Assembly: GCF_044647545.1 (NCBI RefSeq)
Contig: NZ_CP172818.1
Reading direction: 5' to 3' (one strand)
Length of the DNA: 64,000 bases
From: Escherichia coli
Lineage (GTDB): Bacteria > Pseudomonadota > Gammaproteobacteria > Enterobacterales > Enterobacteriaceae
The notes under the pieces were generated by a model. The model did not search any database and was not told the origin of the DNA. It saw nothing but the letters and a program-made list of their open reading frames with translations. Shown one piece after another: positions 5,057 through 64,000 of the stretch (within the stretch, counting starts at the first letter, position 1; each line of letters starts with the position of its first letter). A program made the position numbers and the translations under genes.

Positions 5057-5149
5057 AGACCAAAGCAAATTTGAGAGATATCTTCTTCTGTCTTGCAACA
5101 GAAGAACAGAAAATCGGGCTTTTGCGCCTGAATATTGCGGAGAAAAAGC

Positions 5150-7903: not shown

Positions 7904-10087
7904 ATGGCGCGTTCCAAAACTGCTCAGCCAAAACACTCACTGCGTAAAATCGCAGTTGTAGTAGCCACAGCGGTTAGCGGCATGTCTGTTTATGCACAGG
8001 CAGCGGTTGAACCGAAAGAAGACACTATCACCGTTACCGCTGCACCTGCGCCGCAAGAAAGCGCATGGGGGCCAGCTGCAACTATTGCGGCGAAGCACTC
8101 TGCTACTGCGACTAAAACGGATACACCAATTGAAAAAACGCCGCAGTCTATTTCGGTTGTGACAAATGAAGAGATGCAGATGCATCAATTTCAGTCTGTA
8201 AAAGAAGCATTAGGTTATACACCTGGCGTTACAGTTAGCAGTCGTGGTGCTTCTAATACATATGATTTTGTTATCATTCGTGGTTTCTCATCTGTTGGCC
8301 TGAATCAAAATAACTACCTTGATGGACTAAAACTTCAGGGCAACTTTTATAACGATGCTGTGATTGATCCTTACATGCTCGAGAGGGTTGAACTGATGCG
8401 TGGGCCGACGTCTGTTCTCTATGGAAAAAGTAATCCTGGTGGGATTATTTCTATGGTGAGTAAGCGCCCGACCACTGACCCCCTGAAAGAAATTCAGTTT
8501 AAAATGGGGACGGATAATCTGTTTCAGACCGGATTCGATTTCAGTGATGCGCTGGATGATAACGGTGAGTTCTCCTACCGTTTGACTGGCCTCGCTCGCT
8601 CAACAAACGAACAGCAGAAAAACTCTGAATCTCAGCGTTATACCATTGCTCCATCATTCTCATGGCGGCCGGACGACAAAACCAATTTAACTTTCCTGTC
8701 CTATTTCCAGAATGAACCAGAAACGGGTTATTACGGTTGGTTGCCGAAAGAGGGGACCGTTGAGCCATTGCCTAATGGTAAGCGTCTACCGACTGACTTC
8801 AATGAAGGTGCGTCGAATAATACATACTCCCGTAACCAGAAAATGGTGGGATATAGTTTTGAACATGGTTTTAATGACACCTTCACCGTGCGTCAGAATC
8901 TGCGTTTCAGTGAAATGAAAACCTCACAGAAAAGTGTTTATGGCCACAGGGATTGCCAGCGATGGTCATACCCTAAACCGCGGGACAGTGGTGGATAATG
9001 AGCGTCTACAAAACTTTAGCGTTGATACCCAACTTGAAAGTAAGTTTGCTACAGGTGACGTCGGGCATACTTTGCTGACAGGGGTAGACTTCATGCGTAT
9101 GCGCAATGATATCAATGCCAGCTTTGGATCTGCACCATCCATCGATCTTTATAACAAATACCATCCTGAATACTTTGCATTTGGTAGCGCAGAGCCATAC
9201 CAGATGAATGAAAGCAAACAAACAGGTATTTATGTTCAGGATCAGGCGGAATGGAATAAATGGGTATTCACTCTGGGGGGGCGCTACGATTGGTCTAAGC
9301 AAGCGACCAAAAACTCTTATACGCCGACTGAAGGTTATATTGAGCGCAATGATCATCAGTTCACCTGGCGCGGTGGTGTAAATTACTTATTCGATAATGG
9401 TATTTCACCTTACTTTAGCTATAGCCAGTCCTTTGAACCGAGTGCTTTCGATCTGGGAACAAGCAACCCGCGCGTTTCCTATAAGCCATCGAAAGGTGAA
9501 CAGTATGAAGCTGGCGTAAAATATGTTCCGAATGATATGCCGGTCGTTGTTACGGGCGCAGTCTATCAATTGACGAAAACAAATAACCTGACAGCAGACC
9601 CAACAAACCCCATTAGCGAAGTCCCGCAGGTGAGATTCGCGCTCGTGGTGTGGAACTTGAAGCAAAAGCGGCGTTAAATGCCAATATTAACTTGACGGCT
9701 TCTTATACCTACACCGATGCGGAATACACCAAAGACACCAATCTCAAAGGTAAAACTCCAGAACAAGTACCGAAGCATATGGCATCTCTCTGGGGGGATT
9801 ATACCTTCAATGAAGGGCCGTTTTCTGGTTTAACATTGGGAACAGGTGGTCGTTTTATTGGTTCCAGCTATGGTGATCCGGCGAACACTTTTAAAGTGGG
9901 TAGCGCAGCTGTAATGGATGCTGTTGTAAAATATGATCTGGCACGCTTTGGTATGGCGGGATCCAGCCTTGCTGTGAACGTCAACAATTTGCTCGATCGT
10001 GAGTATGTTGCCAGTTGCTTCCAGACCTATGGCTGCTTCTGGGGCGCAGAACGTCAGGTCGTTGCAACCGCAACCTTCCGTTTCTAA
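7904..10087 (+). pseudogene. fhuA: ferrichrome outer-membrane transporter FhuA (TonB-dependent receptor), reading frame interrupted by two frameshifts
   Basis: Three consecutive ORFs (7904..8998, 8934..9677, 9650..10087) each translate to FhuA-like sequence; ORF1 and ORF3 share a frame, ORF2 is +1; junctions at ~8945-8957 and ~9629-9630. Confidence 0.85.
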
Positions 10088-19596: not shown

Positions 19597-21114
19597 ATGG
19601 CACAGATTGATTTCCGAAAAAAAATAAACTGGCATCGTCGTTACCGTTCACCACAGGGCGTTAAAACCGAACATGAGATCCTGCGGATCTTCGAGAGCGA
19701 TCGCGGGCGTATCATCAACTCTCCGGCAATTCGTCGTCTGCAACAAAAGACCCAGGTTTTTCCACTGGAGCGCAATGCCGCCGTGCGCACGCGTCTTACC
19801 CACTCGATGGAAGTCCAGCAGGTGGGGCGTTATATCGCTAAAGAGATTTTAAGCCGCCTGAAAGAGCTTAAATTACTGGAGGCGTATGGTCTCGATGAAC
19901 TGACCGGGCCCTTTGAAAGCATTGTTGAGATGTCATGCCTGATGCACGATATCGGCAATCCGCCGTTTGGTCATTTTGGCGAAGCGGCGATAAATGACTG
20001 GTTTCGCCAGCGTTTGCACCCGGAAGATGCCGAAAGCCAGCCTCTGACTGACGATCGCTGCAGCGTGGCAGCACTACGTTTACGGGACGGGGAAGAACCG
20101 CTTAACGAGCTGCGGCGCAAAATACGTCAGGACTTATGTCATTTTGAGGGGAATGCACAAGGCATTCGTCTGGTGCATACATTGATGCGGATGAATCTCA
20201 CCTGGGCGCAGGTTGGCGGTATTTTAAAATATACCCGTCCAGCGTGGTGGCGTGGCGAAACGCCTGAGACACATCACTATTTAATGAAAAAGCCGGGTTA
20301 TTATCTTTCTGAAGAAGCCTATATTGCCCGGTTGCGTAAAGAACTTAATTTGGCGCTTTACAGTCGTTTTCCATTAACGTGGATTATGGAAGCTGCCGAC
20401 GACATCTCCTATTGTGTGGCAGACCTTGAAGATGCGGTAGAGAAAAGGATATTTACCGTTGAGCAGCTTTATCATCATTTGCACGAGGCGTGGGGCCAGC
20501 ATGAGAAAGGTTCGCTCTTTTCGCTGGTGGTTGAAAATGCCTGGGAAAAATCACGCTCAAATAGTTTAAGCCGCAGTACGGAAGACCAGTTTTTTATGTA
20601 TTTACGGGTAAACACTCTAAATAAACTGGTACCCTACGCGGCACAACGATTTATTGATAATCTGCCTGCGATTTTCGCCGGAACGTTTAATCATGCATTA
20701 TTGGAAGATGCCAGCGAATGCAGCGATCTTCTTAAGCTTTATAAAAATGTCGCTGTAAAACATGTGTTTAGCCATCCAGATGTCGAGCAGCTTGAATTGC
20801 AGGGCTATCGGGTCATTAGCGGATTATTAGAGATTTATCGCCCTTTATTAAGCCTGTCGTTATCAGACTTTACTGAACTGGTAGAAAAAGAACGGGTGAA
20901 ACGTTTCCCTATTGAATCGCGCTTATTCCACAAACTCTCGACGCGCCATCGGCTGGCCTATGTCGAGGCTGTCAGTAAATTACCGTCAGATTCTCCTGAG
21001 TTTCCGCTATGGGAATATTATTACCGTTGCCGCCTGCTGCAGGATTATATCAGCGGTATGACCGACCTCTATGCGTGGGATGAATACCGACGTCTGATGG
21101 CCGTAGAACAATAA
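19597..21114 (+). CDS. dgt: dGTP triphosphohydrolase (505 aa)
   Basis: [18 protein letters not shown]...HD-domain motifs ([15 protein letters not shown]). Confidence 0.95.
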
Positions 21115-21122
21115 CCAGGCTT

Positions 21123-21165
21123 TTGTAAAGACGAACAATAAATTTTTACCTTTTGCAGAAACTTT
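21123..21165 (+). promoter_or_regulatory. candidate CpxR-binding region upstream of degP
   Basis: GTAAAgacgaacaataaatttttacc contains GTAAA-like half sites upstream of the sigma-E promoter; assignment from known degP regulation. Confidence 0.35.
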
Positions 21166-21170
21166 AGTTC

Positions 21171-21198
21171 GGAACTTCGCGCTATAAAACGAATCTGA
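21171..21198 (+). promoter_or_regulatory. sigma-E (RpoE) promoter of degP
   Basis: GGAACTT (21171-21177) - 16 nt - TCTGA (21194-21198), matches sigma-E consensus GGAACTT-N16-TCTGA. Confidence 0.8.
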
Positions 21199-21243
21199 AG
21201 AACACAGCAATTTTGCGTTATCTGTTAATCGAGACTGAAATAC

Positions 21244-22668
21244 ATGAAAAAAACCACATTAGCACTGAGTGCACTGGCTCTGAGTTTAGGTTTGGCGTTA
21301 TCTCCGCTCTCTGCAACGGCGGCTGAGACTTCTTCAGCAACGACAGCCCAGCAGATGCCAAGCCTTGCACCGATGCTCGAAAAGGTGATGCCTTCAGTGG
21401 TCAGCATTAACGTAGAAGGTAGCACAACCGTTAATACGCCGCGTATGCCGCGTAATTTCCAGCAGTTCTTCGGTGATGATTCTCCGTTCTGCCAGGAAGG
21501 TTCTCCGTTCCAGAGTTCTCCGTTCTGCCAGGGTGGCCAGGGCGGTAATGGTGGCGGCCAGCAACAGAAATTCATGGCGCTGGGTTCCGGCGTCATCATT
21601 GATGCCGATAAAGGCTATGTCGTCACCAACAACCACGTTGTTGATAACGCGACGGTGATTAAAGTCCAACTGAGCGATGGCCGTAAGTTCGACGCGAAGA
21701 TGGTTGGCAAAGATCCGCGCTCTGATATCGCGCTGATCCAGATCCAGAACCCGAAAAACCTGACCGCAATTAAGATGGCGGATTCTGATGCACTGCGCGT
21801 GGGTGATTACACCGTAGCGATTGGTAACCCGTTTGGTCTGGGCGAGACGGTAACTTCCGGGATTGTCTCTGCGCTGGGGCGTAGCGGCCTGAATGCCGAA
21901 AACTACGAAAACTTCATCCAGACCGATGCAGCGATTAACCGTGGTAACTCCGGTGGTGCGCTGGTTAACCTGAACGGTGAACTGATCGGTATCAACACCG
22001 CGATCCTCGCACCGGACGGCGGCAACATCGGTATCGGTTTTGCTATCCCGAGCAACATGGTGAAAAACCTGACCTCGCAGATGGTGGAATACGGCCAGGT
22101 GAAACGCGGTGAGTTGGGTATTATGGGCACTGAGCTGAACTCCGATCTGGCGAAAGCGATGAAAGTTGACGCCCAGCGCGGTGCTTTCGTAAGCCAGGTT
22201 CTGCCGAATTCTTCCGCCGCGAAAGCGGGCATTAAAGCGGGTGATGTGATCACCTCACTGAACGGTAAGCCAATCAGCAGCTTTGCCGCACTGCGTGCTC
22301 AGGTGGGCACTATGCCGGTAGGTAGCAAACTGACCCTGGGCTTATTGCGCGACGGGAAGCAGGTTAACGTGAACCTGGAACTTCAGCAGAGCAGCCAGAA
22401 TCAGGTTGATTCCAGCACCATCTTCAACGGCATTGAAGGCGCTGAGATGAGCAACAAAGGCAAAGATCAGGGCGTGGTAGTGAACAACGTGAAAACGGGC
22501 ACTCCGGCTGCGCAGATCGGCCTGAAGAAAGGTGATGTGATTATTGGCGCGAACCAGCAGGCAGTGAAAAACATCGCTGAACTGCGTAAAGTTCTCGACA
22601 GCAAACCGTCTGTGCTGGCACTGAACATTCAGCGCGGCGACAGCACCATCTACCTGTTAATGCAGTAA
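21244..22668 (+). CDS. degP: periplasmic serine endoprotease/chaperone DegP (HtrA), 474 aa
   Basis: Signal peptide MKKTTLALSALALSLGLALSPLSATA; catalytic GNSGGAL; two PDZ domains. Confidence 0.96.
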   Translation: MKKTTLALSALALSLGLALSPLSATAAETSSATTAQQMPSLAPMLEKVMPSVVSINVEGSTTVNTPRMPRNFQQFFGDDSPFCQEGSPFQSSPFCQGGQGGNGGGQQQKFMALGSGVIIDADKGYVVTNNHVVDNATVIKVQLSDGRKFDAKMVGKDPRSDIALIQIQNPKNLTAIKMADSDALRVGDYTVAIGNPFGLGETVTSGIVSALGRSGLNAENYENFIQTDAAINRGNSGGALVNLNGELIGINTAILAPDGGNIGIGFAIPSNMVKNLTSQMVEYGQVKRGELGIMGTELNSDLAKAMKVDAQRGAFVSQVLPNSSAAKAGIKAGDVITSLNGKPISSFAALRAQVGTMPVGSKLTLGLLRDGKQVNVNLELQQSSQNQVDSSTIFNGIEGAEMSNKGKDQGVVVNNVKTGTPAAQIGLKKGDVIIGANQQAVKNIAELRKVLDSKPSVLALNIQRGDSTIYLLMQ

Positions 22669-55320: not shown

Positions 55321-56031
55321 ATGGTGAAAAAAGCGATAGTGACAGCGATGGCTGTAATCAGCCTCTTTACTCTGATGGGATGTAATAATCGGGCCGAAGT
55401 CGATACGCTTTCTCCGGCACAGGCTGCCGAACTGAAACCGATGCCGCAAAGTTGGCGCGGCGTGCTGCCGTGTGCTGATTGCGAAGGAATCGAAACCTCT
55501 CTGTTCCTCGAAAAAGACGGAACCTGGGTGATGAATGAGCGTTATCTGGGGGCTCGTGAAGAACCTTCCTCCTTCGCTTCCTACGGTACATGGGCGCGAA
55601 CCGCTGACAAGCTGGTATTAACCGATAGCAAAGGTGAAAAGTCATATTATCGCGCGAAAGGAGATGCGCTGGAGATGCTCGATCGTGAAGGTAATCCGAT
55701 TGAATCGCAGTTCAACTATACGCTGGAACCGGCACAATCCAGCTTACCCATGACACCGATGACCCTGCGGGGCATGTATTTTTATATGGCTGATGCGGCG
55801 ACCTTCACTGATTGCGCGACCGGAAAACGTTTCATGGTGGCGAATAACGCAGAGCTGGAGCGTGGCTACCTGGCTGCGCGCGGTAACAGTGAAAAACCGG
55901 TGTTACTGTCAGTAGAAGGTCACTTTACGCTTGAGGCTAATCCGGATACCGGTGCGCCGACCAAAGTATTAGCGCCCGATACGGCAGGTAAATTTTACCC
56001 AAACCATGATTGCAGTAGTTTGGGGCTGTAA
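55321..56031 (+). CDS. nlpE: outer-membrane lipoprotein NlpE (Cpx envelope-stress sensor), 236 aa
   Basis: MVKKAIVTAMAVISLFTLMGCNN (lipobox LMGC), CxxC motif PCADCEG. Confidence 0.92.
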   Translation: MVKKAIVTAMAVISLFTLMGCNNRAEVDTLSPAQAAELKPMPQSWRGVLPCADCEGIETSLFLEKDGTWVMNERYLGAREEPSSFASYGTWARTADKLVLTDSKGEKSYYRAKGDALEMLDREGNPIESQFNYTLEPAQSSLPMTPMTLRGMYFYMADAATFTDCATGKRFMVANNAELERGYLAARGNSEKPVLLSVEGHFTLEANPDTGAPTKVLAPDTAGKFYPNHDCSSLGL

Positions 56032-56061
56032 CCCGTCTTGAGACAGAAACAAATGAAATAT

Positions 56062-56162
56062 TGCCTCATGCGCTGCGCTTATCAGGCCTAAAGCATACAA
56101 TGCAATATTTTGAATTAGCACAATTTTGTAGGCCGGATAAGGCGTTCACGCCGCATCCGGCA
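56062..56162. repeat. BIME: two palindromic units (REP) between convergent nlpE and yaeF
   Basis: tgcctcatgcgctgcgcttatcaggcctaaag ... gtaggccggataaggcgttcacgccgcatccggca. Confidence 0.8.
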
Positions 56163-56186
56163 TTTTGCGCACGAGGCTGGCTTTTA

Positions 56187-63776: not shown

Positions 63777-64000
63777 AAATTGAAGAGTTTGATCATGGCT
63801 CAGATTGAACGCTGGCGGCAGGCCTAACACATGCAAGTCGAACGGTAACAGGAATCAGCTTGCTGATTCGCTGACGAGTGGCGGACGGGTGAGTAATGTC
63901 TGGGAAACTGCCTGATGGAGGGGGATAACTACTGGAAACGGTAGCTAATACCGCATAACGTCGCAAGACCAAAGAGGGGGACCTTCGGGCCTCTTGCCAT
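63777..64000 (+). rRNA. rrsH: 16S ribosomal RNA, 5' 224 nt (continues beyond window)
   Basis: aaattgaagagtttgatcatggctcagattgaacgctggcggcaggcctaacacatgcaagtcgaacggtaacagga... canonical enterobacterial 16S 5' end; operon assigned as rrnH by position after gmhB. Confidence 0.95.

Follow-up and report, generated by a model that had tools for sequence, protein, structure and literature searches.

Position-by-position map of the degP (htrA) envelope-stress control region in a 64-kb stretch of an Escherichia coli chromosome

The region between dgt and degP (21115-21243) of the E. coli chromosome analysed here is very probably the well-characterised degP/htrA control region of this species, in which a sigma-E promoter with a mapped transcription start lies downstream of a conserved CpxR block. 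An earlier account made from the letters of the DNA (the sequence-only reading) had pointed to an envelope-stress promoter at this position; that observation was confirmed, and its interpretation is supported. The degP promoter region is already known and ordinary, and because degP is a founding member of both the sigma-E and the Cpx promoters, the result carries little weight as a discovery. It does indicate that a first-stage reader working from raw sequence can locate a real promoter with single-base accuracy, and it provides a coordinate-level map for this strain that covers the CpxR boxes, the -35 and -10 elements, the +1 position, the thermometer hairpin and a minor upstream start (Table 1). 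The sequence-only reading had missed the thermometer match, the start inside dgt, the CpxR site at 20975-20989 and the TATAAA within the spacer. Motif positions, uniqueness, conservation, the fit to published starts and the Rfam match were obtained here; that the promoter depends on sigma-E, that CpxR binds and that the leader acts as a thermometer are points taken from the literature or inferred.

The whole stretch that was analysed (the window) comprises 64 kb of chromosome and is colinear with approximately 159.6-223.6 kb of strain MG1655 at 92-99% identity; window positions were converted to NC_000913 positions with an offset of 159640, without indels. The genes that flank the control region were identified by comparison with the K-12 proteins, and both the dgt and the degP annotations are also present in genomes that are identical at this locus (100% in the case of dgt). 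Some upstream degP control elements sit in the 3' end of dgt. When the 401 bases around the promoter were compared with complete E. coli genomes, 5422 of the 5424 matching genomes were at least 99% identical, always under annotated dgt and degP, and of 5426 complete genomes, 5424 have the same or nearly the same sequence in front of an annotated degP. A consensus scan revealed no terminator-like site between dgt and degP, the scan of 20900-21400 for sigma-70 and terminator consensus sequences gave no match, and an inverted-repeat search of 21090-21260 found nothing.

Table 1. Positions in the window of the degP control elements and of other features
Feature	Position	Strand	Basis or remark
dgt (dGTP triphosphohydrolase) CDS	19597-21114	+	tblastn against K-12 Dgt, 99.8% over 505 aa
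Distal CpxR box 'degP2', GTAAATTACCGTCAG, in dgt	20975-20989	+	known site, Table S1 of PMC9600279
TATTAT, dgt codons GAA-TAT-TAT	21016-21021	+	8-13 nt before 21029
Weak upstream start, 215-nt 5' UTR	21029	+	Cappable-seq, MG1655 180669, score 1.8 (PMC4782308)
Probable CpxR-P binding region: GTAAA 21125-21129, N5, ACAAT 21135-21139, N5, TTTAC 21145-21149	21125-21149	.	listed site and conservation
Possible weak CpxR-like site, CTAAAGTTTCTGCAAA, N6 spacing, adjoins -35	21152-21167	-	weight-matrix prediction only, score 8.1, supplementary file 3 of PMC9600279
Sigma-E -35, GGAACTT	21171-21177	+	7/7 to consensus
16-nt spacer, contains TATAAA at 21183-21188	21178-21193	+	
Sigma-E -10, TCTGA	21194-21198	+	3/5 to consensus TCAAA
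Main degP start (+1, A)	21204	+	MG1655 180844, two independent start-site datasets
40-nt 5' UTR and two codons, match to Rfam RF02700 (HtrA fourU thermometer)	21204-21249	+	cmscan
Predicted leader hairpin	21208-21237		UUUU 21211-21214 opposite Shine-Dalgarno GAGA 21231-21234; bulged C 21216; loop 21221-21225
degP (htrA) CDS, periplasmic serine endoprotease and chaperone	21244-22668	+	99.6% identity to K-12 DegP over 474 aa
t44 RNA (tff), upstream of rpsB	30086-30172	+	Rfam
rseP	36598-37950	+	full length, intact
bamA	37980-40412	+	full length, intact
skp	40534-41019	+	full length, intact
nlpE	55321-56031	+	full length, intact
rcsF	60003-59599	-	full length, intact
16S rRNA gene (rrsH), first 221 nt, ends at window edge	63777-64000	+	Rfam
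Shortened intergenic stretches	5058-5066, 23982-24034, 30927-30931, 32824-32828, 56053-56183		

The sequence-only reading had described the promoter as GGAACTT-N16-TCTGA at 21171-21198, and this proved correct to the base for the -35 element (21171-21177), the 16-nt spacer and the -10 element (21194-21198), with 45 nt (21199-21243) separating the -10 element from the degP ATG at 21244, as had been claimed. Its description of the promoter as canonical holds for the -35 element, the spacing and the start, but not for the -10 element, in which T1, C2 and A5 agree with the modern consensus TCAAA and positions 3 and 4 differ. TCTGA is the older textbook form of the sigma-E -10 element and is shared with rpoH P3. 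The strict pattern GGAACTT-N16-TCTGA gave a single match on both strands of the 64-kb window, compared to 0.01 expected from dinucleotide shuffles. A relaxed sigma-E pattern (-35 element with at least 6 of 7 positions, N15-17, TCNNA) showed no enrichment in the window, with 9 matches compared to 7.2 expected; thus, only the strict motif carries weight and the relaxed scan is unusable for discovery.

The transcription start of degP has been mapped in MG1655 in two datasets, both taken from unstressed cultures. Kim et al. 2012 reported one degP start, at NC_000913 180844, giving a 40-nt UTR (PMC3415461), and the same position is the dominant degP start in Cappable-seq data, with a score of 41.6 (PMC4782308). 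Position 180844 corresponds to A21204 of the window, 5 nt after the -10 element (the discriminator) and 26 nt after the -35 element. The geometry preferred by sigma-E is a 16-nt spacer, a discriminator of 5 or 6 nt and a distance of 26 or 27 nt from the -35 element to +1 (Rhodius et al., PMC1312014), and the limits that we applied were a spacer of 15-19 nt (16 preferred), a discriminator of 5 or 6 nt, 25-28 nt from the -35 element to +1 and a purine start; all of the degP values (16, 5 and 26 nt, with an A at the start) fall within these limits. Both K-12 maps place the main degP 5' end where the sigma-E motif predicts it, and not elsewhere. In addition, DegP belongs to the core sigma-E regulon (PMC1312014), and a validated library of 60 sigma-E promoters counts degP among its active members (PMC3326320). 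Sigma-E dependence of the degP promoter and the CpxR footprints are taken from secondary sources. Like the consensus E. coli sigma-E promoters of rpoE, rybB and micA (Rhodius et al. 2006), the degP promoter combines GGAACTT with a 16-nt spacer and a 5-nt discriminator, starts at a purine and is preceded by A/T-rich sequence, whereas the consensus promoters have TCAAA in place of TCTGA and, unlike them, degP has a CpxR activator site where the UP-element contacts would be, which suggests that the degP promoter integrates a second stress pathway. In the proposed mechanism, RNA polymerase carrying sigma-E (RpoE) would read GGAACTT and TCTGA, 16 nt apart, and would initiate at A21204. DegS and RseP free sigma-E by cleaving RseA, so that misfolded outer-membrane proteins and heat both increase degP transcription.

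Conservation was evaluated in a footprint of the upstream DNA of 80 degP loci from different Enterobacteriaceae species; 75 of the sequences were distinct when 150 nt were aligned, and 79 when 330 nt were. Conservation reached 0.97 in the -35 element, 0.97 in the -10 element and 1.0 in the GTAAA/CAAT/TTTAC block, and the variable positions were those of the CpxR N5 spacer (0.68), the stretch from the CpxR block to the -35 element (0.64), the discriminator (0.64) and the sequence just past the dgt stop codon (0.57). Among the 79 relatives, the -35 element reads GGAACTT in 62, GGAACTA in 13 and TGAACTT in 4, so that GGAAC is present in 75 and GAAC in all 79; the -10 element reads TCTGA in 67, TCTTA in 6 and TCTCA in 3. 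These data bear on the alternative that GGAACTT/TCTGA is a chance match without promoter function. The unenriched relaxed pattern is what could be said for it, and set against it are the very low expectation for the strict motif, two datasets that map a start where the motif predicts one, and a motif that is kept across genera while its flanks vary. We regard a chance match as extremely improbable; the mapped starts and the conservation already refute it.

Within E. coli, the K-12 degP region is identical to the window over 161 nt except for two adjacent spacer bases, 21179-21180 (GC in the window, AG in K-12), and its -35 and -10 elements, start, CpxR boxes and UTR are those of the window. 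These two bases sit in the sigma-E spacer near the -35 element. The window allele was found as an exact match over 60 nt in 4023 of 5424 complete E. coli genomes (~74%), and GC is also the majority form across other genera, indicating that the AG of K-12 is the derived, minority form. No functional consequence is predicted for this difference.

The sequence-only reading had placed GTAAA-type CpxR half-sites further upstream of the sigma-E promoter. GTAAA is present at 21125-21129 on the plus strand and at 21149-21145 on the minus strand, but not as a tandem GTAAA-N5-GTAAA; the box consists of one perfect half-site and one degenerate half-site, flanked by an inverted GTAAA. The arrangement GTAAA-N15-TTTAC occurs once in the window (0.08 expected). 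With respect to the main start, the region spans approximately -79 to -55, with its centre at about -67 and its sub-sites at about -72 and -62. Its first part, GTAAAGACGAACAAT (21125-21139), is tabulated under the name 'degP1' as a known CpxR site, and degP responds strongly to Cpx, with 27-fold induction in the presence of cpxA24 and 32-fold induction when NlpE is overproduced (PMC9600279). Since 'degP1' carries 3 mismatches to GTAAA-N5-GTAAA, and since this stringency yields 489 matches in the window compared to 390 expected, a consensus with 3 mismatches is non-discriminating and the CpxR box taken by its sequence alone is statistically indistinguishable from chance. The support for the CpxR site is its conservation and the literature, not motif statistics: all 79 relatives carry GTAAA, CAAT and TTTAC unchanged, with a variable spacer at 21131-21135. 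Phosphorylated CpxR bound to the GTAAA/CAAT/TTTAC block would boost transcription when Cpx is on, for example via NlpE.

Two further CpxR sites have been listed for this locus. The distal box 'degP2' has its centre at -222 relative to the main start and at -47 relative to the weak start at 21029; of its two half-sites, close relatives keep only the first, and across genera the second shows no conservation. The other, a CpxR-like site adjoining the -35 element, is predicted with low confidence, and its conservation is moderate. As separate observations, a 9-nt exact direct repeat, GAACAATAA, occurs at 21106-21114 (the end of dgt, including the stop codon) and at 21133-21141 (in the CpxR region), and a 13-nt imperfect repeat 30 bp apart (CTTTTGTAAAGAC at 21120-21132 and CTTTTGCAGAAAC at 21150-21162) overlaps the predicted site at 21152-21167; both repeats may be due to chance.

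The Cappable-seq data also contain a weak start inside dgt. The aligned Salmonella position lies exactly 215 nt before the ATG, which is the UTR reported for htrAp1. The hexamer TATTAT upstream of this start recurs in 61 of the 79 relatives, with a conservation of 0.91 at its third-codon positions compared to 0.52 for the 3' end of dgt. TATTAT is likely the sigma-70-type -10 element of a weak upstream degP promoter, the orthologue of Salmonella htrAp1. This minor start, possibly together with read-through from dgt, would provide a low constitutive input to degP.

A second hexamer, TATAAA, lies within the sigma-E spacer and is kept in 61 of 79 relatives. Its A21186-A21188 are at least 95% conserved, a level that A21186 and A21187 hold in both alignments and A21188 in one of them (80-95% in the longer alignment). 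The spacers of sigma-E promoters are usually little conserved (PMC3326320). In Salmonella, the htrA promoters are htrAp1, p2 and p3, and UTRs of 40 nt (under stress only), 47 nt, and 215 or 449 nt have been reported (PMC5602114); in a published map of K. pneumoniae, one degP start coincides with the G of TCTGA (25 reads) and a second lies 9 nt further downstream (11 reads). The position of TATAAA fits the -10 element of the second, slightly upstream start of Salmonella and Klebsiella. It is conceivable, in our view unlikely, that a sigma-70-type promoter overlaps the sigma-E promoter in E. coli as an addition to it, not as a replacement, with TATAAA as its -10 element, a start at approximately G21197 and a 47-nt UTR, and with CpxR at about -60 acting mainly via this promoter. 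Cpx activation of degP is reportedly only partly sigma-E dependent, as is said to have been found by Danese and co-workers in 1995, and this, together with the retention of TATAAA in a class of spacers that usually varies, the Salmonella 47-nt-UTR start beside the stress-only 40-nt one and the Klebsiella start on the G of TCTGA, speaks for such a promoter. However, the 47-nt-UTR start of Salmonella was not detected in E. coli: its counterpart, 180837, is in neither Kim et al. 2012 nor the Cappable-seq data, in which 180844 is strong. Moreover, there is no recognisable -35 element 16-18 nt upstream of TATAAA, the sigma-70 scan described above was empty, and the discriminator would be 8 nt, which is long. 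Because both E. coli maps were made from unstressed cultures, a Cpx-dependent start may have been missed. The overlapping promoter is kept as a minority rival, and the sigma-E promoter with its start at A21204 remains the preferred reading of the E. coli data.

The transcript that begins at A21204 starts on the first base of a match to the Rfam family of HtrA fourU thermometers. The cmscan match is full length, with a score of 77 bits (E = 1.4e-14) where the gathering threshold is 52, and the leader has four uridines opposite the Shine-Dalgarno sequence together with a bulged C; in Escherichia, the lower stem carries an A21210/C21235 mismatch. At the sequence level, the E. coli leader is a member of the thermometer family. 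The Salmonella htrA thermometer was validated by reporter assays and SHAPE (PMC5602114). The Salmonella enterica htrA leader (RF02700) likewise follows dgt, its 40-nt UTR begins ACAGCAAUUUUGCG, and it has in common with E. coli a fourU facing GAGA, a bulged C and a loop of 5 nt; it differs at 21235, where E. coli has C for U and hence the lower-stem A/C mismatch, and in the loop, where E. coli has U for C. In folding predictions, the E. coli leader had a minimum free energy of -3.0 kcal/mol (z = 0.69, no more stable than shuffles), compared to -5.8 kcal/mol for Salmonella, and the Shine-Dalgarno sequence had a predicted exposure of 0.55 (30 C) and 0.62 (42 C) in E. coli versus 0.08 and 0.32 in Salmonella. 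Other genera mostly resemble E. coli, with weak and temperature-flat predicted occlusion of the Shine-Dalgarno sequence. The E. coli hairpin is predicted by these models to be much weaker than that of Salmonella and to be half open whatever the temperature. The 40-nt leader could fold into a short fourU hairpin with UUUU on the Shine-Dalgarno GAGA, through which temperature might tune translation; the hairpin is an RNA thermometer in Salmonella and is predicted to be weak in E. coli.

Comparison of 56 leaders revealed no covariation beyond that of shuffles (0.078 vs 0.087), with only 2 pairs changed on both sides, and RNAalifold found no consensus structure among them. In the named register, 74.8% of cells could pair compared to 26-56% in slid registers, and this in-register pairing is high because the sequence is conserved. 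The 5' half of the leader, 21204-21220 (ACAGCAAUUUUGCGUUA), is highly conserved even in genera with an altered 3' hairpin strand and loss of the predicted Shine-Dalgarno occlusion, indicating that the hairpin alone does not explain the conservation. The alternative that the E. coli 5' UTR is no working thermometer, that it is conserved through other constraints (for example the initial transcribed region of the sigma-E promoter and the ribosome-binding site) and that its Rfam match reflects only near-identity to Salmonella has, in our estimate, slightly less than an even chance. It is favoured by the mismatch, which abolishes a lower-stem pair, by the low predicted stability and the small change in exposure between 30 and 42 C (with temperature-flat predictions in most genera), by the covariation and RNAalifold results, and by the fact that our search of a limited literature collection found no E. 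coli test of a degP/htrA RNA thermometer. Against it, the score is far over the Rfam gathering threshold, the register pairs exceed those of slid registers, and none of UUUU, the bulged C and GAGA is missing; in addition, weak hairpins are the design of thermometers, and nearest-neighbour models perform poorly on marginal hairpins and U-G pairs.

The leader and the spacer could also be read jointly, such that E. coli uses these conserved elements differently from Salmonella and Klebsiella, with a thermometer that the fixed U-to-C change at 21235 has mostly put out of action and a TATAAA promoter (start at ~21197) that is silent unless Cpx is on. We consider this combination doubtful. If it were true, heat would act on DegP in E. 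coli almost entirely at the level of transcription, and Cpx might work through a cryptic sigma-70 promoter that is unannotated in E. coli.

The sequence-only reading had also stated that rseP, bamA, skp, nlpE and rcsF occur in the window in the known arrangement, and indeed all of these genes are present and intact, in MG1655 order. The unusually high density of envelope-stress and outer-membrane loci that it saw in the window is a matter of judgement. Within rseP, approximately 900 nt upstream of bamA, we found GGAACTA-N16-TCGAA (37044-37078, plus strand). A Cappable-seq start at MG1655 197026 (score 6.5) corresponds to window position 37078, exactly 6 nt past the TCGAA -10 element, and this motif is probably the known sigma-E promoter that feeds bamA-skp-lpxD. 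A perfect GGAACTT-N17-TCTTA (1358-1330, minus strand) at the 3' end of sfsA and approximately 200 nt upstream of dksA was rejected as a promoter candidate; there was no Cappable-seq start at the predicted 160801-160803, and ~0.4 such matches per window are expected by chance. In the remainder of the window, the sequence was shorter than that of MG1655 by ~35-150 bp at the intergenic regions hrpB-mrcB, cdaR-yaeH, rpsB-tsf, pyrH-frr and nlpE-yaeF, and from their intergenic position we suspect that repetitive extragenic elements are missing from this strain at these places. Finally, the fhuA segment at 8943-9629 was too divergent from MG1655 to be aligned, and its flanks showed 92.5% identity.
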